Shown piece after piece: positions 6,836 through 37,473 of a DNA stretch of 44,410 nucleotides. The position numbers were made by a program, and so were the translations under genes. The DNA comes from a virus. Lineage: Duplodnaviria; Caudoviricetes. How positions within the stretch are numbered: position 1 is the stretch's first letter; the number at the start of each line of letters is the position of its first letter. Location: positions 1-44,410 of the IMG/VR virus record IMGVR_UViG_3300042923_000933; one strand, written 5' to 3'. Under the pieces are notes generated by a model. That model did no database searches. It was given only the letters and a program-made list of their open reading frames with translations, and was not told the origin of the DNA.

Positions 6836-6853
6836 ATGGGAGGTAATAAAATT

Positions 6854-8320
6854 ATGGCAAAAAGCACAGAACATTTAGCACTTTATGAAGCTGAAAAGAC
6901 AGATGGAACACTTACTTTTAATATACAAAAAATGATGAACGACAACTGGGACAAGTTGGATGCAGACAGTAAAGCAAAAGATACGAATATAACCAATATA
7001 AATAATGCGATAGGTTCAGCTGTATTGTCTACAACTGATAAGACAGTGAAAGGTGCTATAAATGAAGTGAAAAATAGTATTCCTTCCACTTTACCAGCAA
7101 ATGGAGGACATGCAAATACAACAGATAAATTCCAAACTGCTAGAAATATAGCATTAACGGGAGATGTAACAGGAACTGCATCTTTTGATGGCTCTAAAGA
7201 TGCAAGTATAGATGCTACATTAAAGAATAGCGGGGTAGCAGTAGGTACTTATAGGAGTGTAACTGTAGATGCAAAAGGTAGGGTTACAGCAGGAACAAAT
7301 CCAACAACTAGAGATGGATATGGATTAAGTGATGTGCCTACTAAAGATGAAGTGAATACTACTATAAATGATTTAGAAATTGGTGGAGTTAACTTATGTA
7401 AAGGTACAAAAGATTTTAGTGATAAATATTGGACAATAACTGGAAATGTGACCTGTGTTGATAGTACCGAAAACCTAGGTTCAAAAACAATAAAATATGT
7501 AACTAATACTGTAATAAATAGTATTGATAATACCATTTATAGTTCTACTGCTTCTCAAGGCTTTGATTTTTCAGATACATCTAAAACATGGACTGTTTCT
7601 GCCTATGTAAGGGGTAGTAAAGTGGGGCAAAAAATTGGGATAACTATATCTGCTGCTAGGATTAATTGGCAACCTAAGAATATTATAGTTGATGATAAGA
7701 CACATAGGATGAGTTGGACATTTCAAGGGGATGGTAATTCAGTACAAATGTTTAGATTTGAAATTAATGGAGCTACTTTAGATAATCCTGTGTATATAAG
7801 AAATATACAGGTTGAAGAAGGAGATAAGGCAACTACATGGACACCTGCACCAGAAGACCAACAAGCTTATGTAGATGCACAGATATCTGATATAAATAAC
7901 TTAATAAATAATTTAAGTACAAACGATATAGAAGCAAGAAGAGAAATATTAGACATGAAGCTAAAACTTGACGAAAATGACGTAATGTCCTTTTTAAGTA
8001 AAACAGGTATAGGATTTTATGATTTATTTAAAAATACGGAAAATATAGATACTACAAATTCTACAGCAACTATAGTTAATACAGATACAGTATTTACAGG
8101 AGAACAGTTATTAAAATTTTTAGAGCAACAATTTGATTCATTTAAAACTGTTGAGCTGGCTATTTATGATTCTGAAAGAAAATCTATAAACGTAGATACA
8201 AATGTTGATAATAGCCAAACAATAGAGGCTACTGTCTCTCCTGATAGTATATTGGTTGGCGATAAATTCTATTTTAATGGAGAAATCTATACTGTAGATA
8301 ACGTGCAGTTGGAAGGGTGA
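6854..8320 (+). CDS. Tail fibre / receptor-binding protein with fibre repeat and carbohydrate-binding-like domain
   Basis: TARNIALTGDVTG..FDGS and VTVDAKGRVTAG fibre motifs; GGVNL..QVEEGDKAT.WTPAPED module. RBS GGAGGT before ATG 6854. Confidence 0.8.
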   Translation: MAKSTEHLALYEAEKTDGTLTFNIQKMMNDNWDKLDADSKAKDTNITNINNAIGSAVLSTTDKTVKGAINEVKNSIPSTLPANGGHANTTDKFQTARNIALTGDVTGTASFDGSKDASIDATLKNSGVAVGTYRSVTVDAKGRVTAGTNPTTRDGYGLSDVPTKDEVNTTINDLEIGGVNLCKGTKDFSDKYWTITGNVTCVDSTENLGSKTIKYVTNTVINSIDNTIYSSTASQGFDFSDTSKTWTVSAYVRGSKVGQKIGITISAARINWQPKNIIVDDKTHRMSWTFQGDGNSVQMFRFEINGATLDNPVYIRNIQVEEGDKATTWTPAPEDQQAYVDAQISDINNLINNLSTNDIEARREILDMKLKLDENDVMSFLSKTGIGFYDLFKNTENIDTTNSTATIVNTDTVFTGEQLLKFLEQQFDSFKTVELAIYDSERKSINVDTNVDNSQTIEATVSPDSILVGDKFYFNGEIYTVDNVQLEG

Positions 8321-8323
8321 TAA

Positions 8324-8686
8324 ATGAATAGAAGAAAACAAGACACTGAACTTACTGTTTATAAAAAAGCAAAAGAATTAATAAATTATACTTTTAGTAT
8401 TACCGAAGGCAAGAAATTTCCCAAAAAGGTTAGATTTGTATTTGTTAACAGAATTCAAAACTTGGTTTTAGATATTTATACTGATTTATTAAAAGTAAAT
8501 GAGATTCCTTTAAAGAATAGGAAACATATATTTATTTCCGTTCTAAGCAATATAAAAGTTGTGCTATTCTTAGTAGAAATGTGCTTAAAACAAAAATATA
8601 TATCTTTTCGTCAGTGCGAAATTTGGAGCAAGCATTGTTTAAACGTTAAATATCTTACTGCCGCATGGATGAAAAGCTGTAAATAA
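8324..8686 (+). CDS. avd: DGR accessory variability determinant (Avd-like four-helix bundle)
   Basis: 120 aa basic helical protein (FPKK.RF....RI, W..S) directly upstream of TR and RT. Confidence 0.85.
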   Translation: MNRRKQDTELTVYKKAKELINYTFSITEGKKFPKKVRFVFVNRIQNLVLDIYTDLLKVNEIPLKNRKHIFISVLSNIKVVLFLVEMCLKQKYISFRQCEIWSKHCLNVKYLTAAWMKSCK

Positions 8687-8707
8687 TTTATAGGGTATGG
8701 GTTGCAA

Positions 8708-8805
8708 TCCGAACTCCTCCAACTCGAACAATGTCCGCAATGTGAACACCGACGGTTCTCTGAACAACAGCAATGCCTACAATGGTAACATGGGAGTTCG
8801 CCCCG
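8708..8805 (+). repeat. DGR template repeat (TR)
   Basis: 98-nt ungapped match to 10685-10782 with 13 mismatches, 12 of them at TR adenines. Contains 11 AAY codons. Confidence 0.97.
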
Positions 8806-8953
8806 ATTAGATGGATTCCTCAGACTTAGTAAACTTATGTTGAACACAGTAGACCATCATCCAAGGAACCCGTATCCTTCCGTAAGGTAAATACAAGATT
8901 ATTGATGCAAAAGTTTCTAAGATACTAGAGCTATACACAATAAGGAGATTTTA

Positions 8954-9985
8954 ATGACATTTGATGAAGTCTTTACATTTGAACATTTATATAGATCTTA
9001 TTTAATTGCCAGAAAAGGCAAAAGGAATAAAAATTCTACAGAAAAATATGAAATGAATGCCCTTGAATGTACAAATTATTTATTCTATCAGTTAAAAAAC
9101 AATAAGTATAAAATTGGCAAATACAAAGAATTTTATGTGTATGAACCCAAGAAAAGATTAATTATGAGTCTACCTTTTAAAGACAGAGTTGTACAGCACT
9201 GTTTATGCGATTATTATTTAGGACCATTGCTAGAGAAATCGATGATATATGATAATTATGCAAATAGAGAGAACAAAGGGACCCATAAGGCATTATATAG
9301 ATTAGAAGATTATTTCCATAAATTCTATAGACATTATAGAGATAATGGATATGCATTAAAATGTGATATATCTAAGTACTTCTATTCTATTGACCATAAT
9401 ATTTTAAAAAATATACTTAGTAAATACATTAAGGATATGAAGATATCAAATCTTATATTTCAAATAATTAATAGTACAGAAAATCCTGGATTGCCAATCG
9501 GTAATCAAACTTCACAATGGTTTGCAATATTTTACATGAGTTGTTTAGACCATTTTATAAAAGAAAAATTGCACATAAAATATTACGAAAGGTATATGGA
9601 TGATTTTTTACTTATTCATAACGGCAAAGAATATTTAAAATACTGTAAATCAGAAATATCAAATTATGTTGAAAATGAGTTAAAGCTAAAGCTTAACAAT
9701 AAAACACAAATATTTCCTTTAAAAAATGGAGTAGATTTTTTAGGATTTCATACTTATTTAACTGAAACTGGCAAGGTTATAAGAAAAGTAAGAAGAAATA
9801 GTAAGAAAGAAATGAATAATAAGCTTAAGAAATTTAAAAAGTTATACATTATGGGTAAAATATCTAAAGAACAGATAGATAAATCTTATAAGAGCTGGAT
9901 CGGACACGCAAGCCACAGTAATAGCTACCATTTAATTAAAAATATGAATAAAAAATATAAGAAGATTTTTAAGGAGGATGATTAA
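8954..9985 (+). CDS. DGR reverse transcriptase
   Basis: PFKDRVVQH, KCDISKYF, GLPIGNQTSQ (DGR-type SQ motif), RYMDD, GVDFLGF. 343 aa, no endonuclease domain. Confidence 0.97.
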   Translation: MTFDEVFTFEHLYRSYLIARKGKRNKNSTEKYEMNALECTNYLFYQLKNNKYKIGKYKEFYVYEPKKRLIMSLPFKDRVVQHCLCDYYLGPLLEKSMIYDNYANRENKGTHKALYRLEDYFHKFYRHYRDNGYALKCDISKYFYSIDHNILKNILSKYIKDMKISNLIFQIINSTENPGLPIGNQTSQWFAIFYMSCLDHFIKEKLHIKYYERYMDDFLLIHNGKEYLKYCKSEISNYVENELKLKLNNKTQIFPLKNGVDFLGFHTYLTETGKVIRKVRRNSKKEMNNKLKKFKKLYIMGKISKEQIDKSYKSWIGHASHSNSYHLIKNMNKKYKKIFKEDD

Positions 9986-11470: not shown

Positions 11471-11857
11471 ATGAACAAACATGCGTTCAACATTATAGTA
11501 GCAGGGTTAGGAGGTGTGTGTACGTATATTTTTGGTGGGTGGGACACTTCTATAACAGTTTTATTCTATTTTATGGTAATTGATTATATTACAGGGCTTA
11601 TGAGTGCAGCAGTACAAAACAGATTAAACTCCAAGGCGGGATATAAGGGTATTGCCAAGAAAGCATCTATTCTAGTAGTACTTATAGTAGCAGTGCTTTT
11701 GGACAGACTTCTAAGTAATGGATTATGGGTTTTCCGTACTCTTGTTTGTTATTTTTACATAGCAAATGAGGGTATTTCTATTTTAGAAAACTGTGGTAAA
11801 TGTGGACTTCCACTGCCAGAAAAATTATTAAAAGCATTAGAGCAATTAAAAAAATAA
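11471..11857 (+). CDS. Holin (phage holin 4 / toxin secretion-phage lysis family)
   Basis: GGWD, DYITG, GIAKK, YIANEGISILEN..GLPLP motifs; hydrophobic helices. Confidence 0.92.
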   Translation: MNKHAFNIIVAGLGGVCTYIFGGWDTSITVLFYFMVIDYITGLMSAAVQNRLNSKAGYKGIAKKASILVVLIVAVLLDRLLSNGLWVFRTLVCYFYIANEGISILENCGKCGLPLPEKLLKALEQLKK

Positions 11858-15023: not shown

Positions 15024-16109
15024 TTACATTGCTAGTTTTAATAGATTCTTACTCGCATTTATATCTCTATCCATTATCATTCCACATACTGGACATATAT
15101 AAGTCCTACATCCTAAATCTTTTGTTTGACTTGATTTATTTCCACAATTAGAGCATAATTGGCTACTTGCATAATTAGTAGGAGCAACGATTATTTCTCT
15201 ACCATACCATTTAGCCTTATATTCTAACATTCTTCTAAATTTAGCCCAGCTTACTTCGCTTATTGCTTTTGCTAATTTGTGATTTTGTTTCATATTCTTT
15301 ACTTGTAAATCCTCAATTACTATTGTTTGGTTTTCACGTATTAATTGAGTACTTACTTTATGAAGAAAATCATTTCTTTGATTAGCTATTTTTTCATGTA
15401 TTTTAGCTACTTTTAATCTAGCTTTCCTTCTATTATTACTACCTTTTTTCTTTCTGGATAAACTTCGTTGTGATTTTATTAATTTCTTTTCTGATTTTCT
15501 AAGCCATTTTGGATTATTATAAAATGTTCCATCGCTTGTTATTGCAAATTCCTTTAATCCTAAATCTATTCCTATTTTATTATTTATTTTAGACAATTGA
15601 ATATTTTCAGTATCAACTAAAATAGATATATAATATTTACCACTGGGTACTTGAGATATTGTACAAGACTTAATTAATCCAGTAAATTGTCTGTGTTGTT
15701 TTATCTTAATCATAGATTTCAATTTAGGTAATTTAATATGTTTACTTTCTATAAATATAGTACCTTTTTGATTATTAGTAGTATAGCTATTATAATTAAT
15801 TTTCTTACTTTTAAATTTAGGAAAACCAGTATGCTCTCTGAAGAATTTCTTATAAGCTTTATCTAAATTCAATTGAGCATTAGCAAGTGCCAAACTATCA
15901 ATCTCTTTAAGCCAAATATATTCTTTTTTATATTGAGCAGGCGTAGGATATTTTATTTGTTTAATATCTAAATCTCTGTTTTCATTATAAGATTTAATTC
16001 TATCAGCCAACATTTGATTATAGATAAATCTAGTACAACCAAAAGTTTTAGCTAAATATAATTGTTGTTTTTTATTAGGATATAATCTATATTTATAAGC
16101 TTTTAACAT
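15024..16109 (-). CDS. tnpB: TnpB RNA-guided endonuclease
   Basis: KAYKYRLYP HTH; RuvC GIDLG, IVIEDL, DRDINA; zinc finger CSNCG..CPVCG. Confidence 0.95.
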   Translation of the reverse strand: MLKAYKYRLYPNKKQQLYLAKTFGCTRFIYNQMLADRIKSYNENRDLDIKQIKYPTPAQYKKEYIWLKEIDSLALANAQLNLDKAYKKFFREHTGFPKFKSKKINYNSYTTNNQKGTIFIESKHIKLPKLKSMIKIKQHRQFTGLIKSCTISQVPSGKYYISILVDTENIQLSKINNKIGIDLGLKEFAITSDGTFYNNPKWLRKSEKKLIKSQRSLSRKKKGSNNRRKARLKVAKIHEKIANQRNDFLHKVSTQLIRENQTIVIEDLQVKNMKQNHKLAKAISEVSWAKFRRMLEYKAKWYGREIIVAPTNYASSQLCSNCGNKSSQTKDLGCRTYICPVCGMIMDRDINASKNLLKLAM

Positions 16110-16120
16110 ATTATTTCACC

Positions 16121-16519
16121 TCATTTCTTTCCTTGATTTTCGATATATTTTTTTATAACTTCTATTGGTGCTCCACCTGTAGTTAATAAACAATAACTTC
16201 TTGACCAAAAATATTCTTTCCATAATTGTTTTTGGATTATTGGATATTCTTTTTTTATAAGTCTGCTACTGGCACTTTTGTAAGCATTAATGAATTTTGA
16301 TATTTCTGTATTTGGTTGTGCTTTAAATAAAATATGAATATGGTCTTTATCATGATTCCATTCTTGTAATGTTATATTATAATTAAGCTGAATATACTCA
16401 AATATTTCCTTTAATCTAATAGAAACATCTTCATTTATTACTTTCCTACGATATTTTATGATTAACACAAGATGATAATATAATAAGAATACTGAATGAT
16501 TATTGCTATCTAAATCCAT
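16121..16519 (-). CDS. tnpA: TnpA Y1 (HUH) transposase
   Basis: YHLV...KYRR, DHIHIL (HUH), FWSRSY, KKYIENQ. Confidence 0.95.
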   Translation of the reverse strand: MDLDSNNHSVFLLYYHLVLIIKYRRKVINEDVSIRLKEIFEYIQLNYNITLQEWNHDKDHIHILFKAQPNTEISKFINAYKSASSRLIKKEYPIIQKQLWKEYFWSRSYCLLTTGGAPIEVIKKYIENQGKK

Positions 16520-17004: not shown

Positions 17005-17904
17005 ATGAATATTTTAGGAGTTGACTTAGGCAATTATGCTACAAAAACAAGTGAAGGTGTAATACTATCCAGTAGAATAGCAGCAGGCCATAAAGAATTA
17101 AATAAGAAGGATATAAAGGTTGAATATAAGGATAAAAAATACACTGTTGGAGCAGGAAGATTAGAATTAGGTACACATAGATTAAACTCTAAACTATATG
17201 ATTTGTGTTTACTTACAGCTATATCAAAAAGCTATCCTGAATTACAAAATATAGAAGTAAATATAGTAGTAGGTCTTCCTCCACTACAGTATGAATCTAG
17301 TTTAAAAGTAGAACTTGAAGATAGATTAAATAAATTAGATACACAGAAAATAATAATAGACGGGAAACTAATAAGTATAACAATAAATAAGGCTCTTGTA
17401 TTTAGTGAATCTGCTATAGTTTTTGGAAATCCAGAACAATACAGAGATACTAAAACATTAGTAATTGATATAGGAGGAGGTTCTACCGACATGTCTCAAT
17501 TTAAAAGCTTAGAGCTTGTAAAAAATACTACAACTAAATTTGGTATGTTAAGTTTAAGTGAAAGTATGAAACAAGTATTTAATAGTAAAGAAAATACTTC
17601 TTATAATGCAGATGATATGGAAGATTTAATAAATAAAGAAACAGAAACTATTCGTGGAGAAAAAAAGGACATCACATATCTAAATGATGTAGTCACAGAT
17701 CATGTAGCAGAAATTTGTAATGTAATAAATCAAAACTTCGATACAGAAAGTACAGATATAATTCTAATTGGTGGAGGTGCTAAAAAGCTTGTAAAATATT
17801 TCAATAAGCAATATGGAAATGCTAAGGTAGCAGATAATAATCAACTCGTAAATGCAAAAACTTACGCTGCTGTTGGGGAGATGCTATGGAATGACAAAGA
17901 ATAG
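17005..17904 (+). CDS. parM: ParM/StbA actin-like partition ATPase
   Basis: GVDLGNYATK, VVGLP, SES, VIDIGGGSTD, LIGGGA actin-fold motifs. Confidence 0.9.
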   Translation: MNILGVDLGNYATKTSEGVILSSRIAAGHKELNKKDIKVEYKDKKYTVGAGRLELGTHRLNSKLYDLCLLTAISKSYPELQNIEVNIVVGLPPLQYESSLKVELEDRLNKLDTQKIIIDGKLISITINKALVFSESAIVFGNPEQYRDTKTLVIDIGGGSTDMSQFKSLELVKNTTTKFGMLSLSESMKQVFNSKENTSYNADDMEDLINKETETIRGEKKDITYLNDVVTDHVAEICNVINQNFDTESTDIILIGGGAKKLVKYFNKQYGNAKVADNNQLVNAKTYAAVGEMLWNDKE

Positions 17905-18193
17905 AAAGGAAATAATAAGAAAAACAATTCCTTTTGGGCCTGCAGAGCAGGAACTTTATAAATATGCTATAGAGCAATGCAATTTACAAGGTATAAAATT
18001 TGCAACTTATGTTAAGAAATTAATAAGAGATGCTAAAAACAATACATCATTAGATTCTGTACTAGAAAAAAAATTAGATAAATATTTTAAAAATAAAAAT
18101 GTGAGTATCAACAAAAATGATACTGGAGCTAATACTAACACTAAATACAAAAAAGAAGATAAATCTGCATTACTTAATTTTTTAAAAAAATAA
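17891..18193 (+). CDS. ParR-like adaptor (RHH-like DNA-binding protein)
   Basis: Small basic ORF overlapping the parM end; FATYVKKLIRD helix; low-complexity C-tail. Confidence 0.7.
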   Translation: MTKNRKEIIRKTIPFGPAEQELYKYAIEQCNLQGIKFATYVKKLIRDAKNNTSLDSVLEKKLDKYFKNKNVSINKNDTGANTNTKYKKEDKSALLNFLKK

Positions 18194-18233
18194 AAAAGCA
18201 GTTATTGTATTTTTTACAATAACTGCTTTTTTT
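18192..18233. terminator. Bidirectional intrinsic terminator
   Basis: Perfect stem AAAAAAGCAGTTATTGTA / TACAATAACTGCTTTTTT. Confidence 0.85.
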
Positions 18234-18239
18234 ATTGTA

Positions 18240-18266
18240 ACAAATTTCCTACATCTACATATTATA
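18240..18266 (+). promoter_or_regulatory. Sigma-K/sigma-E-like sporulation promoter
   Basis: AC-N16-CATATTATA fits the sigma-K consensus AC-N16-CATANNNTA. Confidence 0.45.
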
Positions 18267-18311
18267 TAGCATAGGTACAACCTAGAGGTATAAAAGGTAT
18301 ATTAAGGAGGT

Positions 18312-18650
18312 ATGATTATGCTACAAATGATAACAAAATTATTACTCAACAAAACTTTTAAAACTAATAAAACAACGGACGCTGCGGATATAATTTGGAA
18401 AAATAAAGTATACCCTATTTATGTCATGGTAAGAAATAAGTTTATATTTTGCATGCAACATAAATTATTAAAAAGACAAGATATATTAAACTTTAAACTC
18501 TTACTAAATAAAAGTATAAATAAGAAAAAATATCTCAGGACCAACTTTAAAAATGATTGCCATGAAATTTACAGTAAACTTAAGGACACTAAGGTTTCAA
18601 AAAAACAGATGTTAGCCTTAAATAAATTTTTAGATCAATTTACAAACTAA
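18312..18650 (+). CDS. Hypothetical basic protein
   Basis: AAGGAGGT RBS; 112 aa; first gene of the FtsK operon. Confidence 0.7.
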   Translation: MIMLQMITKLLLNKTFKTNKTTDAADIIWKNKVYPIYVMVRNKFIFCMQHKLLKRQDILNFKLLLNKSINKKKYLRTNFKNDCHEIYSKLKDTKVSKKQMLALNKFLDQFTN

Positions 18651-18754
18651 CCATAGTTGTATTTTATCCAGGAAAGGAAACTTAAAAAATAAACAACCAT
18701 ATTTATTTTAATTTTCTTTCCTCTCTTACATAATAATTTTATTTGGAGGTTATA

Positions 18755-18892
18755 ATGGAACTATTTTTCTTGGACAAATTAATATTAAATTTTATAAAAA
18801 ATATTGATGCAAGAACTCTATTTTCTCTTTCTATTGGAGTATTAATTTTTACAACAATACTGGATAATAAAAAGAAGGTGAAAAGAAAATGA
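18755..18892 (+). CDS. Small membrane protein (45 aa, not in ORF track)
   Basis: GGAGGT RBS; MELFFLDKLILNFIKNIDARTLFSLSIGVLIFTTILDNKKKVKRK; ATGA overlap with the FtsK gene. Confidence 0.65.
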   Translation: MELFFLDKLILNFIKNIDARTLFSLSIGVLIFTTILDNKKKVKRK

Positions 18893-20103
18893 TTACTGAG
18901 TTTGCTATAGCCACAGGCATAGTTTATGGATTCAACTATTTTAAAAATCCTGCCACGAAAATAAAAAAAGATTTTAATAGAGTTATGTCAAATAACAATT
19001 TAGATTATAAAATAATTAAAATATTAGATAAAAATTATGGGCACAGTTTAATAATTAATTTAGGATATAACGGTTATGAAAAATTAGAAGGTACCAAAGA
19101 TATGTTAGAAACTTCTCTAGGATACATGGTTTATATAGAACAAAACAAAAATTTAAAAACTGCTACTATAGACATGATTAGGCCTATTTCAAATATTAAA
19201 TTTGAGCCTGTTAAAATTCAGCCATATGAGCTGTATATCGGCAAATCATTCACTCAAAGGACAATTATATCAAACATGAATAAATTTCCTCATGCGCTTG
19301 TCTCTGGACAAACTGGATGTGGCAAAACAGAGGAAATAAGAATTATCTTAACTAATCTTATTTATAATTATTCTAAAAGAGATATTAATTTATATTTTTC
19401 AGACTTATCAGATACAAACGACTTTATTATATTTCAACATTGTAGCCAAACAAAATTCTATGCAAGAAACATATATGACAGTTTAAAATTATTCAAATAT
19501 TTAATGCATTTATATACCAAAAGACTCTCTATATTTGCAAAGTTTAATTGTAAAAACATCCTAGAATATAATAAAAAAAATCATGAAAAAAGGACGTCTT
19601 ATGTTTATCTAATTTTAGATGAATTTGCAGACTATTTTCCTGCTAATCAACACATGGTTTATTATAAAGAAAAACAGGAATGCTACAATATTTTACGAGA
19701 ATTAATTAGAAAATCTAGGAAAGCAGGCATATTTCTTATAGTTGGCATCCAAAGACCAGATACTACAGTCCTGGATCCTTCACTAAGAAGTGGCCTATGT
19801 ACTAAAATAGCTTTTAGTCAAAACAATAATGCATCCAGCCTTACAGTATGCGATAGTAATGAACTTACTAATATAGAGAATAGACAAGCTTTGTTTATGG
19901 CAGGAAACAAAAGGGAATGGTTTAGAACCTTAGATGTGAATGATAAAATAATAAAAAAATATGTTGCTAATAGTTATATTATTTCAAAACCATACAAAGA
20001 GAACTCTCCTAACAAGACCACAAATATAGTTGATGTAAAAAAATATACTGAAATTAAAGAGTTACCTTCAAGAAAGAAATCTAAAAGAAGGATAAAATTA
20101 TGA
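18889..20103 (+). CDS. FtsK/SpoIIIE-family ATPase
   Basis: Walker A GQTGCGKT, Walker B LILDEFAD, RKAGI..IQRP; N-terminal hydrophobic segment. Confidence 0.9.
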   Translation: MITEFAIATGIVYGFNYFKNPATKIKKDFNRVMSNNNLDYKIIKILDKNYGHSLIINLGYNGYEKLEGTKDMLETSLGYMVYIEQNKNLKTATIDMIRPISNIKFEPVKIQPYELYIGKSFTQRTIISNMNKFPHALVSGQTGCGKTEEIRIILTNLIYNYSKRDINLYFSDLSDTNDFIIFQHCSQTKFYARNIYDSLKLFKYLMHLYTKRLSIFAKFNCKNILEYNKKNHEKRTSYVYLILDEFADYFPANQHMVYYKEKQECYNILRELIRKSRKAGIFLIVGIQRPDTTVLDPSLRSGLCTKIAFSQNNNASSLTVCDSNELTNIENRQALFMAGNKREWFRTLDVNDKIIKKYVANSYIISKPYKENSPNKTTNIVDVKKYTEIKELPSRKKSKRRIKL

Positions 20104-20705
20104 TATTGATGGAGAGAGATAAAAATATTTTAAGACATATAGAAAAATATAAAAGTATAACTCTTACTCAATGTAGTAAAATATTTTATCGTAATCATAA
20201 ACAAGCATATTACCAGGCTAGAAAAAGATTATCAATTTTATATAAAAATAAATATTTAAAAAAATATAGAAAGGACCCACGTTCTGAAACAATTTATTTC
20301 CTCAATAAACATCTAAGCTACCACGATTTAAAAGTATTTGATATATATGCAGATCTAATAAATATGGGAGCAGATATATTATTTTTTAAAACCAAATACA
20401 GAATTAATAATCCCAGTGGATACAGAGAAATAGACGCACTTATAGAGTGCAAATACAATGGATATTTCTATCCAATAATTTTAGAAATAGATATGTCGCA
20501 TTTTACAACTATAGAAAAACTTAACGATATATACAATTCTAAGCATTTCCAAGATAAATATAAGAAATTAGCACCTGATATATTTCCAACAGTTTTGATA
20601 TTTAGACCATACTTACCACTAGATCCATTGCATAGTGATTTATTTGACATATTGGTAATGCAGTTTAATAACTATAGTCTGGAGTCTCTCTTTGAAGATT
20701 ATTAA
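20100..20705 (+). CDS. Replication-relaxation (Replic_Relax)-like protein
   Basis: N-terminal winged helix (RDK.IL..I..ARKRL..L), H.L, DALI, ILEID; coupled to the FtsK gene. Confidence 0.75.
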   Translation: MILMERDKNILRHIEKYKSITLTQCSKIFYRNHKQAYYQARKRLSILYKNKYLKKYRKDPRSETIYFLNKHLSYHDLKVFDIYADLINMGADILFFKTKYRINNPSGYREIDALIECKYNGYFYPIILEIDMSHFTTIEKLNDIYNSKHFQDKYKKLAPDIFPTVLIFRPYLPLDPLHSDLFDILVMQFNNYSLESLFEDY

Positions 20706-20859
20706 CTAATTACTATAAACCCCTATTACTATATTTATTTCTAATTACTACCGTTAGTTTAAAATCCTTAAAATACTACTATATAGTTACTTAGATTATA
20801 CCTTTTAGGATACGTATTATTCACAGGTATAAAACAAAGGTACATCTGAAAGGTATAAT

Positions 20860-21378
20860 CTACATGAACTGAATAAATATAAAAAATACACTGAATATAA
20901 AAAAATATCCCTCTAGTTTTGTGCTGCTGATTTTAACCATATTCTTGCATGGATAAAACAATTCTACTCCTTCCCAAGTTAACATATCTAAAAATAGATG
21001 CGTAAAATATCCTATAGCAAAGTATAATGCTGCTAATTTAGATATAGGAACTATACAAGCAGTAAAAATTAGAAGGAATAGTAAGCTATGTGCCGCAGTT
21101 CTATGCTCTGTACACACTTTTAAAATAAGCGAAATTACAAACATTATTATCAGAGAGGCAATTATTAAATTATTATGTGTTACAAGTACTATAAGTACGC
21201 TCATTGTAAAATAGAAGCTTATAAATTTAAATGATTGTATTAAACTATAGTCTGCATCAACATCTGGCAACAATGCTCCTAATACGACAAAAGGTAAAAA
21301 TATAATTAGCTTAGGATGCATATGTATCACAGGAGATACTGTTGCAACTCCCACGCTTAAATGAGTTATTCCAGACAT
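20860..21378 (-). CDS. YdjM-like membrane metal-dependent hydrolase
   Basis: TH, GALLPDVD, HRTAAHSL, GY.THL.LD..T..GV.LFYP. Confidence 0.85.
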   Translation of the reverse strand: MSGITHLSVGVATVSPVIHMHPKLIIFLPFVVLGALLPDVDADYSLIQSFKFISFYFTMSVLIVLVTHNNLIIASLIIMFVISLILKVCTEHRTAAHSLLFLLIFTACIVPISKLAALYFAIGYFTHLFLDMLTWEGVELFYPCKNMVKISSTKLEGYFFIFSVFFIFIQFM

Positions 21379-21435
21379 AAAATCACCTCATTTTAGTAAT
21401 TGCCAACTGCTAAAATCTTATACATATAAAAAAGT

Positions 21436-21471
21436 TGTGGATAACTAGAAAAAAATCTAAGGTTATCCACA
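21436..21471. promoter_or_regulatory. Two perfect DnaA boxes in inverted orientation (candidate plasmid origin element)
   Basis: TGTGGATAA 21436-21444 and TTATCCACA 21463-21471 within a longer inverted repeat. Confidence 0.75.
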
Positions 21472-21479
21472 ACTTTTTA

Positions 21480-21508
21480 TTGCAATTTTATTACTTTTAA
21501 GATAAAAT
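21480..21508 (+). promoter_or_regulatory. Sigma-A promoter for rep, with long leader
   Basis: TTGCAA-17-TAAAAT. Confidence 0.6.
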
Positions 21509-21561
21509 ATTATACATAAATAAGAAAATTAATCGAATTTAAATAAAAATAAAAATGAATA

Positions 21562-21673
21562 GCAAAAATCCGTTAAACAGTTAGGTCGGCAAACTTGATG
21601 TTTAACGGATTATGAGAAGCTTTGAATCTCTCATAGAGCTTATAAAATAAGCTTATTTCTTTATTAACTTATG
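21562..21673 (-). ncRNA. Candidate antisense copy-number control RNA (about 110 nt)
   Basis: Minus-strand promoter TTGACT(21708-21703)-17-TATAAT(21685-21680). Ends in a 13-bp hairpin (21567-21579 / 21599-21611) followed by a U-run. Confidence 0.65.
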
Positions 21674-21784
21674 TAAGTAATTATAAATTATTCATACTTT
21701 ATAGTCAATAGTTTTTAACTAATTACTTTACTAAATTATGAAATAATTCAAAGCTTTCTCTGCTACTAAGGGAGGCTTATTTTA

Positions 21785-22594
21785 ATGCAATATAAAGTTA
21801 AACTTACAGAAGAAGAAATAAATAGAATAAATTTAGTAGACAATTCCAATATCAGAAAGAGCCTTATGAGTGTATATGCCTACATGATTAAGACAAACGA
21901 AAAATTAAATAATACATATGCAAATCTTAACTTAAAGAAAGATCCTTTTAAATTACAAATATCTTTCAGAAAACTTTTAGCTGCTTATAAAAGATATCAT
22001 TCAATAAAAAATTTACAGACATTAAAAAACAGAATAGATAAATTAATAAAACTTGGATTACTTGGAGTAGAAAAAATTAAGAATAAATCCTTCTATACTT
22101 TTTGTAGATTTTTACAGTTAGACAAAAAAGTAGACAAAAAGTTAGACAAAAAAAATCCTGCTAAGCCTATTGAAAACACTACACTTAATGAAGATGAGCA
22201 TTTACCTAAATCTAAAAGCTTTAATTCTATTAATAACTTTAACTCTAATACTAAAGCTACAGAAAGAAAAAAAATATCATCTTTGGAAGAAAGTAAAAAA
22301 ATAGTATTTAAAGCTTTTAAGGATTTAAGAGTAAAATCAAAGTGGATAAAGCAAAGGGTACTAAATAAAATAGAACGATACTGGTATAAGCTTTATAAAG
22401 ATGCAGCAATGTCTTACATATACAAAATTATAAATAGTGCTAGAAAGGCTTATTATGCTAATTACAATAAGTATATAAAAAATTCTAATATCTATAAAAA
22501 CGAAGTCGCACAGGAACTTAGTACATTCAATAATTTTCCACAAAGAAATTATAATTTTCAGGAACTGGAAAAAAAGCTTTTGGGATGGGAGTAA
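21785..22594 (+). CDS. Putative plasmid-type replication initiator (Rep)
   Basis: Winged-helix-like N-terminus; internal 12-bp repeats; C-terminal FNNFPQRNYNFQELEKKLLGW motif typical of clostridial initiators; upstream DnaA boxes. Confidence 0.7.
   Translation: MQYKVKLTEEEINRINLVDNSNIRKSLMSVYAYMIKTNEKLNNTYANLNLKKDPFKLQISFRKLLAAYKRYHSIKNLQTLKNRIDKLIKLGLLGVEKIKNKSFYTFCRFLQLDKKVDKKLDKKNPAKPIENTTLNEDEHLPKSKSFNSINNFNSNTKATERKKISSLEESKKIVFKAFKDLRVKSKWIKQRVLNKIERYWYKLYKDAAMSYIYKIINSARKAYYANYNKYIKNSNIYKNEVAQELSTFNNFPQRNYNFQELEKKLLGWE
22118..22153 (+). repeat. Three 12-bp direct repeats (iteron-like) inside rep
   Basis: TTAGACAAAAAA GTAGACAAAAAG TTAGACAAAAAA. Confidence 0.65.
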
Positions 22595-22601
22595 GTATTC
22601 T

Positions 22602-22757
22602 TTATTTATTGTTTTCCTTTATTCCATAATGATCCATAATTATTTTATATACCATATTGCTCACAGAGCGACCTTCGTATTCAGATTCTTCTTTTAATAG
22701 CTCATGCACTTTTTTAGATATTGTCACATTAATTCTGGTGCTTTCTTTTTTAATCAT
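22602..22757 (-). CDS. Ribbon-helix-helix (CopG/Arc-like) protein, 51 aa, not in ORF track
   Basis: MIKKESTRINVTISKKVHELLKEESEYEGRSVSNMVYKIIMDHYGIKENNK; AGAGGT RBS. Confidence 0.75.
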   Translation of the reverse strand: MIKKESTRINVTISKKVHELLKEESEYEGRSVSNMVYKIIMDHYGIKENNK

Positions 22758-22847: not shown

Positions 22848-23174
22848 TTAAAAATAATTCTTGTATTTCTCTTTTATTTTAGCAAAAAAATACATAACCT
22901 CTAATTTGCCATCTATAGGTAGTTTAGAGAACTCAATATATTTGTCTTTATAGTAAACACATTCCTCGTTACATAATCCTAAACTACATCCAACAACAAG
23001 TATTGTGGGACAAATTTTAAGAGCATGTCCAATCCTTTCTATAGTATAAGAACTTGGATCACTTTTAGTTTGTTCTATTTTAGATAAATAACTATAATTT
23101 ATTCCACTTAATTTTGCCAGCCTTCTAAGAGATAACTTTTTTTCTTGTCTATATTTTCTTATATCTAGCAACAT
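22848..23174 (-). CDS. XRE-family HTH regulator with Cys-rich C-terminal part
   Basis: IRKYRQEKKLSLRRLAKLSGINYSYLSKIE; C..GC...C...C; GGAGGT RBS. Confidence 0.85.
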   Translation of the reverse strand: MLLDIRKYRQEKKLSLRRLAKLSGINYSYLSKIEQTKSDPSSYTIERIGHALKICPTILVVGCSLGLCNEECVYYKDKYIEFSKLPIDGKLEVMYFFAKIKEKYKNYF

Positions 23175-23216
23175 TTAAACACCTCCAAACAATCGTTATT
23201 ACATTATATAATATAA

Positions 23217-23223
23217 TTCGACA
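23217..23223 (-). promoter_or_regulatory. Spo0A box
   Basis: TGTCGAA on the minus strand, 43 nt upstream of the XRE gene start. Confidence 0.45.
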
Positions 23224-23327
23224 AAATATAAACTAATTTTACATGGAAAAAATTCAAAATGTTGTAACATATGAAACACTACCTGTATTATAATAAAGAC
23301 ATAGTAGTTAACAAAAAATTAATATTA

Positions 23328-23367
23328 CGAACATGCGTTTGCATAAAATTAAAAAAAGTGGTATTTT
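23328..23367 (+). promoter_or_regulatory. LexA (SOS) box overlapping a sigma-A promoter
   Basis: CGAAC-ATGC-GTTTG (23328-23341) matches CGAAC-RNRY-GTTYG. It overlaps TTGCAT(23339)-17-TATTTT, which has an extended TG. Confidence 0.75.
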
Positions 23368-23536
23368 AAAACTAACAATACACTAATTATGAGTAAAAAT
23401 ATAAAATAAAATTCTAATAAAAAATACAATAAAAGTGGAAGAAATAAGAAATTTTCTTATACATAAATTAGTTTATAATTAATTAACATAAAAATTAAAT
23501 TTAAAAAATAGCTTTAATATCTGTGGAGGTAAGTAT

Positions 23537-23611
23537 ATGAGACAAGATCTAACTGAACTGCTTAAGACATTAGAGGAAGCATTACAAAAAATTGTAAAGA
23601 GCAGGGAATAG
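23537..23611 (+). CDS. 24-aa peptide, candidate SOS-induced antirepressor (not in ORF track)
   Basis: GGAGGT RBS; MRQDLTELLKTLEEALQKIVKSRE; 10 of 13 residues identical to the peptide at 24411. Confidence 0.65.
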   Translation: MRQDLTELLKTLEEALQKIVKSRE

Positions 23612-23612
23612 C

Positions 23613-23990
23613 CTACTCTTTACAATTTTTTTCTTTTAAACATTTAATTTTTAATTTTATTTCCTGTTCTAATACAGAAATAACAATATCCTTATCCTTA
23701 TCTGGAATTTTGCCATCATCTTTAATTAACCCATTCTCGATCATAGCATTTATAAGTACATCTAATGCTTGATAAGATTCGTAAGAAATATCTGAACCAT
23801 CTTTAGCCCAGTAAGTAATTGGTAGATTACTTACTTTGGAGAGCTTATTTATAAATTCTATAGTCCCTTTTATATTTCCTCTCTCTGTTTCAGCTATAGT
23901 CGATCTAGATGTACCTAATTTATCAGCTAATTGTTTTTGAGTTAAATTATTTTCTTTTCTGTATATTTTAAGCTTTTCTTTAAAGTCCAA
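23613..23990 (-). CDS. CI-like immunity repressor (XRE HTH, no S24 peptidase domain)
   Basis: LKIYRKENNLTQKQLADKLGTSRSTIAETERG; 125 aa; divergent from the cro-like gene. Confidence 0.85.
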   Translation of the reverse strand: MDFKEKLKIYRKENNLTQKQLADKLGTSRSTIAETERGNIKGTIEFINKLSKVSNLPITYWAKDGSDISYESYQALDVLINAMIENGLIKDDGKIPDKDKDIVISVLEQEIKLKIKCLKEKNCKE

Positions 23991-24033
23991 ACTTTTTTAC
24001 ACCTCCTTATACATATTATTATACACTATTTGT

Positions 24034-24181
24034 GTCATAAAACAAGACATAAATTATGACAAACAATATAGTAATATTGACATAAATTATGACATATACA
24101 TGTATATTGGACATTCTTAAAGATTTAAACCAATTTCAAGCATAAATGGAATTTGAAAAAGGTCATAAATTATGACATAAT
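24034..24181. promoter_or_regulatory. Immunity operators and lytic promoter
   Basis: 15-bp palindrome GTCATAAATTATGAC at 24162-24176; one-mismatch copies at 24046-24060 and 24079-24093; degenerate copy at 24034-24048. TTGAAA(24153)-17-CATAAT. Confidence 0.8.
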
Positions 24182-24217
24182 AAATTTGTACTTAAGAAAG
24201 GAGGCGCTTAAATAACT

Positions 24218-24427
24218 ATGACACTAAGAGAACTTAGGAAACAAAAAGGATTGTCACCTGGATTTGTTGCAAGCAAATTAAATATTACCTACAGACATTT
24301 TTACAGAATAGAGACAAGTGGCAATTTTTTAACAAGAAAAAGAGCAAAGATATTAGCAAATCTCTATGGTGTCAAGATAGCTGATATTTTAAAATACGGA
24401 GGGGATAAAAATGAAAGAGCTTCTTGA
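24218..24427 (+). CDS. Cro-like HTH protein
   Basis: 69 aa XRE HTH; first rightward early gene. Confidence 0.85.
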   Translation: MTLRELRKQKGLSPGFVASKLNITYRHFYRIETSGNFLTRKRAKILANLYGVKIADILKYGGDKNERAS

Positions 24428-24524
24428 GACGTTAGAAAAAGCATTAGATAAAATACAACAGGAAAGTGAAACTCAAAATGCAAAATCTGATAAAGGATTG
24501 GTAAACACAAATGGATTAGTTTAA
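24411..24524 (+). CDS. 37-aa peptide, paralogue of the 23537 peptide (not in ORF track)
   Basis: GGAGGG RBS; MKELLETLEKALDKIQQESETQNAKSDKGLVNTNGLV; overlaps the cro end. Confidence 0.65.
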   Translation: MKELLETLEKALDKIQQESETQNAKSDKGLVNTNGLV

Positions 24525-24546
24525 ATATAAAGGGGAGACAAGCTAT

Positions 24547-25338
24547 ATGAATGATATACAAATCTTTAAAAATCCAAGTTTTGGCCAAGTAAGAACAGTA
24601 ACTGTAAAAGGGAAAATTCACTTTGTGGCTATAGATATTGCAAAGGCTCTTGGATATAAGAATACGAGAGATGCAATATTAAAGCATTGCAGGTGGGTAG
24701 CAAAATGCGACGTACCTCATCCACAAAGTAAAAATAAGACAATAGAAGTCAATGCAATACCAGAAGGTGACATTTATAGATTAGTAGCAAATTCGGAATT
24801 ACCTGGAGCAGAGAAATTTGAAAGTTGGATATTTGATGAAGTGTTACCACAGATAAATCATACAGGTGGATATATACCATCTAGTGAAAATGATAGTGAA
24901 GAAGATATTATGGCAAAGGCTTTATTGATAGCACACAGAAAAATTGAATTGAAAAATAAAACTATTGCTGAGAAAGAAAGACAATTAGAGGAGCAGAAAC
25001 CTAAAGTAGTATTTGCAGATAGCGTAGCAGTAGCAAGAACTTCAATTCTTGTAGGAGATTTAGCAAAGCTAATAAAGCAAAATGGACACGATATAGGAGC
25101 TAAAAGATTATTTACATGGATGCGTGAAAATGGATATTTAATTAAAAGAAAAGGTACTGATTACAATACTCCAACTCAAAAATCTATGAAATTGAAGCTG
25201 CTTGAAACAAAAGAAACGACTATAAACCACAGTGATGGACATATAAGCATATCACGTACCCCAAAAGTAACAGGAAAAGGGCAGATATACTTTATTAATA
25301 AATTCAAAGACTTATTTAATAAAGAGGAGGTTATATAA
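24547..25338 (+). CDS. Antirepressor, BRO-N plus ANT/KilAC
   Basis: FG.VRT..FVA.DIA.ALGY, WIFDEVLP.I..TGGY, PKV.FAD.V, TPKVTGKGQIYF. Confidence 0.92.
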   Translation: MNDIQIFKNPSFGQVRTVTVKGKIHFVAIDIAKALGYKNTRDAILKHCRWVAKCDVPHPQSKNKTIEVNAIPEGDIYRLVANSELPGAEKFESWIFDEVLPQINHTGGYIPSSENDSEEDIMAKALLIAHRKIELKNKTIAEKERQLEEQKPKVVFADSVAVARTSILVGDLAKLIKQNGHDIGAKRLFTWMRENGYLIKRKGTDYNTPTQKSMKLKLLETKETTINHSDGHISISRTPKVTGKGQIYFINKFKDLFNKEEVI

Positions 25339-36273: not shown

Positions 36274-37473
36274 ATGCTAGTTGATAGGGTGGAAAAACAT
36301 ATTATTAAATCCAATAATTTCTATTATAAAATGCTTGATGAATTTTGTTTTAAATCTAAAAATCTATATAATTATGCAAACTATATAGTAAGGCAAAATT
36401 TTATTAATAACAAGACATGGATTAGATATAATGAATTAGATAAATTAGCTAAAGGCGACGATTATTCTAATTTGCCAGCCAAATCATCACAACAGATACT
36501 TAAAGTATTAGATAGAAATTGGAAATCATTCTTTAAAACCATAAAAGATTGGAGCAAACACAAAGAAAAATATTACGGTAAACCCAAGTTACCTAAATAT
36601 TTAAATAAAGCCCAAGGAAGATTTGAATTAATTTTGACTAACCAGCAATGCAAAATTAAAGATGGATATATTAAATTTCCTAAAATATTTAATAAATTTA
36701 CTATAAAAACTAAAGTAGACAATATACAGCAAGTAAGAATATTGCCCAGAAACAAATGCTTGACAATTGAAGTTGTGTACAGGATCAATATACCACGCGT
36801 GAGGCAAGATAATAGCAAATACTTATCTATTGATATAGGCTTAAACAATTTAGCCGCCATAGTAAATAACTGTAGCATTAAACCCATTATTATATCTGGC
36901 AGAAAAATTAAATCTATCAATCAATATTATAACAAGAAAATGTCACACTATAGGAAAGTAGCTAAACGTATGAATAGCCTTATTTATACAAGCAGGATGA
37001 ACAAACTAACTATTAAAAGAAATAATATGATTACAGATTTGATACACAAAGCAAGTAAAAACATAGTTAAATATGCTTTAAGCTGTGAGACAAATACAAT
37101 AATCATAGGTAATAATAAGAACTGGAAACAGAATAGTAAAATGAACAAAAAAGTTAATCAAAGTTTTATAGGGGTACCACACCAACAATTCATACAAATG
37201 ATACAATATAAAGCTGCAGATGTAGGAATCAATGTAATTTTAACAGAAGAAAGCTATACAAGCGGGACAAGTTTTCTTGATAATGAATCACCTATAAAAG
37301 AAAACTACAATAAGTCAAGAAGGAAATATAGAGGACTATTTATAAGCAACAAAGGGATAAAAATAAATGCTGATATAAATGGAGCATATCAAATAATGAA
37401 AAAAGTATTTCCGAAAGTTTTTACTGACGGGATAGAGGGTGCCGGGTTGCATCCATTTAGAGTAAGCATTTAA
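36274..37473 (+). CDS. tnpB: TnpB-family nuclease without adjacent transposase
   Basis: SKNLYNYANY, SIDIGLNN, IIIGNN..W, TEESYTS, RGLF, INADINGA. Zinc-finger cysteines absent. Confidence 0.9.
   Translation: MLVDRVEKHIIKSNNFYYKMLDEFCFKSKNLYNYANYIVRQNFINNKTWIRYNELDKLAKGDDYSNLPAKSSQQILKVLDRNWKSFFKTIKDWSKHKEKYYGKPKLPKYLNKAQGRFELILTNQQCKIKDGYIKFPKIFNKFTIKTKVDNIQQVRILPRNKCLTIEVVYRINIPRVRQDNSKYLSIDIGLNNLAAIVNNCSIKPIIISGRKIKSINQYYNKKMSHYRKVAKRMNSLIYTSRMNKLTIKRNNMITDLIHKASKNIVKYALSCETNTIIIGNNKNWKQNSKMNKKVNQSFIGVPHQQFIQMIQYKAADVGINVILTEESYTSGTSFLDNESPIKENYNKSRRKYRGLFISNKGIKINADINGAYQIMKKVFPKVFTDGIEGAGLHPFRVSI

Follow-up and report, generated by a model that had tools for sequence, protein, structure and literature searches.

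A conserved repressor/cro cassette with two paralogous helical micro-genes as a probable LexA-gated antirepressor switch of clostridial phages

Introduction

How can a prophage respond to DNA damage if its repressor cannot be cleaved? This question is raised by the immunity region of a Caudoviricetes virus (IMG/VR record IMGVR_UViG_3300042923_000933), of which the window analysed here is the whole 44,410-base virus record. In Bacillus phages φ106, φW23, Wbeta, BMBtp14 and Waukesha92, an extended arbitrium switch composed of AimX, AimC and AimL has been described (bioRxiv 10.1101/2025.11.23.689978; PDB 9SF2 and 9IAQ), and a 29-aa ORF that follows a LexA site and converges on the gene of a short non-cleavable repressor is reported there to encode a protein antirepressor that blocks oligomerisation. 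In this study, we found that the window contains a real, conserved and unannotated switch module. It is probably a repressor/cro cassette with two paralogous helical micro-genes, one encoding a LexA-gated antirepressor and the other a second antirepressor within the lytic operon.

Results

The repressor/cro cassette and its surroundings

The repressor gene (23613..23990, minus strand) encodes a protein of 125 aa with an HTH, a linker and a two-helix C-terminal domain, which resembles AimC according to family, model, and fold and profile searches. As had been claimed from the sequence alone, it has no autocleavage peptidase domain; Pfam and PHROGs give HTH families only, and no peptidase. The AF2 model (pLDDT 85) places the C-terminal helices at residues 72-85 and 97-120, and the nearest named relative, from Clostridium tyrobutyricum, is 83% identical. 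The best PDB match to the repressor family, both by profile (E 2.5e-17) and by fold (E 9e-5), is 9SF2, the structure of the φ106 repressor with AimX, albeit the matches to 9SF2 and 9IAQ are mostly driven by the HTH, with a TM-score of 0.47 over the whole chain. SinR is also among the top sequence and fold matches. No ImmA-type or metallopeptidase gene adjoining the repressor was found by Pfam and PHROGs among the scanned proteins of the window, a genome from which the head region is missing.

A cro-like HTH gene of 69 aa (24218..24427, plus strand; Pfam/PHROGs), occupying the AimL position, is divergent from the repressor. Four operator-like palindromic repeats lie between the two genes (24034..24176; at 24034, 24046, 24079 and 24162), and the last of them is located inside the spacer of the candidate early lytic promoter TTGAAA-17-CATAAT (24153..24181, plus strand) found by promoter scan.

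Two small ORFs on the plus strand complete the cassette. Peptide 1 (24 aa; ORF 23537-23611, 23525..23611 with its RBS), delineated from the ORF list and its conservation, is convergent with the repressor, and both its GGAGG site and the gap of 1 nt to the repressor stop codon, as previously claimed, were verified. Peptide 2 (37 aa; 24411..24524), delineated from the ORF list and by comparison, overlaps cro by 17 nt. Neither peptide belongs to a known family in Pfam or PHROGs. PDB and Atlas searches with the peptides returned generic helices only (peptide 2 Atlas matches were 0.80 or lower), and none of the 24 weak PDB matches of the peptide profile was an AimX chain, AimX proteins being themselves highly divergent.

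Contigs of an independent study (run X2) cover the cassette, showing 7 differences over 22966-24332 and 3 over 24320-24696, which indicates that it is not an assembly artefact. By Pfam and PHROGs, the window encodes tail, lysis, plasmid-maintenance and early genes and 0 head genes, and because head genes are absent we regard it as a partial phage-plasmid genome. Its plasmid-type module (17005-22757) comprises a ParM-like actin, an FtsK/SpoIIIE protein (weak Replic_Relax match), a YdjM-family membrane protein, a Rep-like protein and an RHH protein. Elsewhere in the window there are a DGR (6836-9985) with Avd (8324-8686) and a reverse transcriptase (8954-9985) adjoining a tail-fibre gene, and an IS200/IS605 element (TnpA and TnpB) together with a second stand-alone TnpB (15024-16519 and 36274-37473).

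Both peptides are conserved with the repressor family

With the repressor alignment, we searched 401 genomes belonging to the same family as a C. perfringens genome. Of the 388 that were scored (13 were not), at least 62 contained a match. Of 73 matches, one duplicate and 11 that were partial were set aside, and the other 61 were combined with viral and annotated loci. The resulting 290 sequences were reduced to 79 by a full-length filter and to 60 by removal of near-duplicates, and 59, the window included, had enough downstream DNA. Single-protein scans gave few relatives, and alignment scans of genome and viral contigs gave mostly HTH-only matches, which were filtered out.

The same arrangement recurs in these clostridial loci. 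A small ORF with an RBS convergent to the repressor was found in 31 of the 59 non-redundant loci, compared with 1.1 expected after shuffling, when peptide 1 was called as an ORF of 15-55 aa with an RBS and an end within 30 nt of the repressor stop. The call is conservative; for example, L290, outside the set, has such an ORF with a weaker RBS. The peptides are amphipathic, the corresponding z lying above 0 in 30 of the 31. The full layout is also present in ΦS63, where both peptides are unannotated. Peptide 1 was undetected in the other 28 loci, and when it was sought in the wider DNA of 20 of these, a displaced copy was found in 1. Many peptide-1-negative loci have a recombinase directly 3' of the repressor. 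In L297, L298, L299 and L300, the repressor and recombinase form an operon, with peptide-2-like ORFs retained in most and peptide 1 not found; their neighbour gene resembles, judging by eye, a split sporulation sigma factor.

Peptide 1 and peptide 2 of the window share the motif ELL.TLE.AL.KI with 10 of 13 residues identical, five of these identical residues using different synonymous codons, as had been noted before; the runner-up match in six frames of the window reaches 6/13. The likeness extends to other loci. In 22 of 31, against 6.3 expected, the ORF most similar to peptide 1 within the locus stands at the beginning of the lytic operon (a few of these are weak), and in two loci it is placed before the cro-like gene. 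Among 17 pairs (L266 was dropped by hand, as its called ORF resembles an excisionase), own-locus peptides score 45.9 on average versus 27.7 for permuted pairs, a value reached in 0 of 20000 permutations, and the own partner ranks first in 11 of 17. The synonymous codons had been taken to point to selection on the peptide. The codon changes are real, but since non-cognate pairs likewise give pN < pS, this argument carries less weight than had been assumed, and pN < pS as such was discarded as proof of selection, being partly an alignment artefact. When cognate are compared with non-cognate pairs, synonymous sites are equally saturated (0.73 vs 0.72) and pN is lower in the former (0.31 vs 0.38); thus, the likeness is kept at the protein level rather than left over from a recent duplication. 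Third copies of the peptide, beyond peptide 1 and on its strand, occur in L254 and L255.

Does peptide 2 share the target of peptide 1? We consider it rather unlikely that peptide 1 is an SOS antirepressor and peptide 2 something else, be it a factor that tunes Cro, a MOR-like co-repressor acting with the repressor as in TP901-1, or a protein used only upon infection. Such a role would fit the overlap or abutment of peptide 2 with cro and the CI:Mor complexes known from other phages (PMC11149083). When scored against peptide 1 of other loci, ORFs like peptide 2 exceed the 95th background percentile in 22 of 31 loci with peptide 1 (a scored peptide 2 is missing in 9) and in 12 of 28 without it, some of them evident false calls, so that peptide 2 can persist alone. 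On the other hand, no HTH was found in peptide 2 by Pfam or PHROGs, and peptide 2 is as similar to its own peptide 1 (44.8) as is the peptide 1 that goes with the nearest repressor (49.6; p 0.44), which fits a common target. It is fairly probable that peptide 2 binds the repressor. Peptide 2 is conserved, and a function in positive feedback is plausible. Taken together, the comparison across loci supports the view that the two peptides are coding features conserved along with the 125-aa HTH repressor family, with a LexA box that tracks peptide 1.

LexA as the input of peptide 1

The predicted LexA operator of the window is a Cheo-type box, GAAC-N4-GTTT (23328..23341, motif 23329-23340, plus strand), which fits the clostridial LexA motif as used in PMC4234289. 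It overlaps, as claimed from the sequence, the -35 element TTGCAT (23339-23344) of a rightward candidate SOS promoter, TTGCAT-17-TATTTT with an extended TG (TGnTATTTT; 23339..23367, plus strand), and L234 has the same box/-35 geometry. This promoter, recognised by sequence, is weak, with 8/12 matching positions, and falls under the cut-off of the promoter scan. One variant relative to the contigs is listed inside the box, in its spacer. Taken alone, the single box of the window is not beyond chance, since three LexA-like motifs were found where 1.6 are expected and 19 of 100 shuffles reach three. The other two (7471-7482 and 11477-11488) are intragenic, one at the start of the holin gene, and are within chance.

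The weight of the box comes from its conservation across loci. A strict box within 400 nt upstream was found in 14 of 31 peptide-1 loci and 0 of 28 others (Fisher p 2e-5), and in 7 of 290 background windows. The p-values given in this study overstate independence, since the loci are not unrelated to one another and linked genes move as a unit. In the window, 197 nt separate the box from the ATG; of the other 13 boxed loci, 12 have a distance of 17-86 nt and one has 255.

Beyond peptide 1 lies a second HTH gene (22848..23174, minus strand; by HTH match), divergent from it. An HTH gene on the repressor strand at this place was seen in at least 12 of 31 loci (the window, L081, L082, L163, L167, L249, L162, L254, L255, L257, L279 and L285), some with a Cys-rich tail, and might provide peptide 1 with a further input. 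Could the box instead serve this divergent gene, or the integrase found there in other loci, while peptide 1 is driven from a nearer promoter by another regulator? In the window, the box is 15 nt past a leftward -35 at 23314 and distant from the peptide-1 ATG, and between the two lies a box-free second candidate promoter, TTTTCT-16-TATAAT (23452-23479, or 23444..23479 with its palindrome; plus strand, by sequence), which carries its own 8-1-8 palindrome over the -35. However, the box accompanies peptide 1 whichever gene is on the far side, the two occurring together past the 3' end of the integrase in L243 and L296, and in other loci it overlaps or adjoins the peptide-1 promoter. We regard this alternative as improbable, and LexA control of peptide 1 at the window locus as likely.

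The strict box is absent within 400 nt in 17 of the 31 peptide-1 loci. In three of these (L266, L268 and L277) a TPR gene and a pro-peptide-like ORF stand in its place, and the upstream input therefore looks interchangeable. These TPR receptor-like genes with signal-peptide-like ORFs (L266, 32-1506; L268, 10-1475; L277, 1897-3351) constitute clostridial arbitrium-like cassettes; L253 contains an ORF of similar size to the TPR genes with no Pfam match.

The junction hairpin and the target of the peptides

Contrary to the sequence-only reading, which saw no terminator between peptide 1 and the repressor, a 19-20 bp hairpin covers both stop codons (23586..23631) and likely acts as a bidirectional terminator. 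It was detected by RNA folding (-21.6 and -25.3 kcal/mol, with z values of -7.1 and -7.9) and is absent from the terminator-scanner list. Among the loci, the median folding energy at the junction is -19.7 kcal/mol with peptide 1 and -7.3 without it. In L082 (3365-3420) and L163 (2830-2870), the hairpin constrains peptide 1 and the repressor to near-identical end residues. A likeness of the peptides to the last, oligomerisation helix of the repressor, as had been proposed, was not above chance against permuted tails, and sequence mimicry was rejected (own versus permuted, trimmed, p 0.72 for peptide 1 and 0.22 for peptide 2, with z of 0.6 and -0.2 in the window); before trimming, the signal (p 0.019) resulted from the end residues forced by the hairpin.

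Similarity among the peptide-1 sequences goes more closely with that of the C-terminal domains of their repressors (partial r 0.20, p 0.0025) than with that of the HTHs (0.10, p 0.08). Moreover, contigs of sister phages from three runs match the window up to 23481, and two of them rejoin it at 24546, so that a block (23482-24545) with the peptides, repressor, operators and cro is swapped while the LexA box and its promoter stay; these contigs were aligned at 80% likeness and are given moderate weight. In four RNA runs, the contigs did not extend over peptide 1, cro or the greater part of the repressor, a result that carries no weight for or against expression.

It seems very improbable that the LexA promoter brings about induction through antisense RNA or transcriptional collision, or that the peptides target a protein of the host, for instance LexA. 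GIL01 gp7, which reportedly acts on host LexA, is a precedent for the latter. The convergent geometry of peptide 1 and repressor would suit the former, and aimX transcripts can run through aimC in some phages (bioRxiv 10.1101/2025.11.23.689978). Yet the junction hairpin is conserved and would likely terminate both transcripts, which therefore leads us to expect action by the protein. In the same preprint, AimX start-codon mutants abolished the response and antisense RNA mattered little, and the previously suggested aid by antisense read-through thus finds no backing. Nor would locus-specific peptides that are swapped with the repressor be expected if their target were a conserved host protein. 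That the ORFs are untranslated by-products and the inducer is the Bro-N/KilAC protein at 24547 (named an anti-repressor by PHROGs, as is 25451) or an ImmA-type protease, in a partial genome whose window has no head genes, is most improbable given the excess of RBS-preceded ORFs, the position of these two genes in the repressed operon, where they are retained when the cassette swaps, and the lack of any ImmA-type family among the scanned window proteins.

Discussion

With the rivals weighed, we favour a pair of antirepressors of which the first is LexA-gated. That peptide 1 acts as an antirepressor of the AimX type is highly probable. In a lysogen, the repressor would oligomerise via its two-helix C-terminal domain and block the cro promoter, and host LexA would hold peptide 1 off. 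Upon DNA damage and cleavage of LexA, peptide 1 would replace the repressor's partner C-terminal domain, and the repressor would leave its operators and allow cro and peptide 2 to be made. Peptide 2 would then titrate the leftover repressor independently of SOS, so that the switch would turn in one direction only and infections would tend towards lysis. Without the second copy, antirepression would be reversed when LexA recovers; with it, the switch would have an inherent positive feedback.

Such a switch could explain how DNA damage is sensed by clostridial prophages whose repressor is non-cleavable. An example is ΦS63, which is induced by UV, in a report (PMC3442830) in which we found no mention of LexA. 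The genes involved encode 17-40 aa and are missed by annotation. We lean, with some reserve, towards a general and widespread clostridial module of twin micro-antirepressors. It would consist of a sensor copy whose input can be exchanged (a LexA box, a quorum cassette like those of the RRNPP type, or a different regulator) together with a lytic copy that is matched to the same repressor and makes the decision irreversible, with AimX arbitrium as one plug-in version. The AimX mechanism would thus be extended beyond Bacillus and arbitrium, with the input suggested to be a swappable part. In industrial clostridia, a short peptide might serve as a specific prophage inducer.

Comparison with known systems

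The locus had been proposed as a new kind of switch, but it matches the AimX-AimC-AimL antirepressor switch of the 2025 preprint, and AimX-AimC of φ106 works as had been proposed for the window. The two have in common a short non-cleavable HTH repressor with a helical C-terminal oligomerisation domain (125 aa in the window; range 80-140 aa), a divergent cro with operators between, a tiny helical ORF convergent with the repressor (24 aa in the window vs 29-80 aa reported) and, in the φ106 family, a LexA site upstream. The window is not a member of extended arbitrium because aimR and aimP are missing; its upstream genes are Rep-like, RHH and HTH, with no TPR among the scanned proteins. Peptide 1 is not detectably homologous to AimX, and the host group is clostridial, whereas the main text of the preprint has 0 matches for 'Clostridi'. 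A further difference is the second copy in the lytic operon: in a check of Bacillus arbitrium phages for a small AimX look-alike after aimL, none was found in 5/5 (a sixth phage without the extended layout was dropped), and no mention of a second aimX copy was found in the main text of the preprint as far as it was accessible. In our literature search, which covered few subscription papers, neither the paired clostridial layout nor the arbitrium-free form with interchangeable inputs nor a second antirepressor copy turned up.

With Tum of 186, AntC of N15, GfoA/GftA of Gifsy (PMC3121763) and Sar of SPβ/φ3T (bioRxiv 10.1101/2025.11.27.690993; see also PMC10432266), the SOS signal enters via LexA control of the antirepressor gene and not via cleavage of the repressor, and the window likewise has a predicted LexA box on the candidate promoter of its putative antirepressor. 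Unlike peptide 1, the antirepressors of Gifsy are encoded away from the immunity region, Tum has 146 aa, and Sar targets the integrase-fold SroF; a paralogue behind cro is not described for these systems in the material available to us, and the window peptides have no homology to known antirepressor families in Pfam or PHROGs.

SinI of Bacillus subtilis is likewise a small helical protein that blocks oligomerisation of an XRE repressor, SinR (PDB 1B0N), but SinI mimics the SinR oligomerisation domain, whereas the window peptides have no measurable sequence likeness to that of their repressor. ImmR-ImmA and IrrE systems differ in the metallopeptidase gene, which was not found beside the window repressor. 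The mor gene heads its lytic operon. MOR of TP901-1 and φ13 is, like the window peptides in our reading, an antirepressor in a lysis-lysogeny switch, but it attaches to CI at the N-terminal domain and is a repressor in its own right (PMC11149083), whereas peptide 2 is predicted to be a single helix without an HTH. The predicted mechanism of peptide 1 is already known, and the new elements would be the clostridial arbitrium-free form, the interchangeable inputs and the lytic paralogue.
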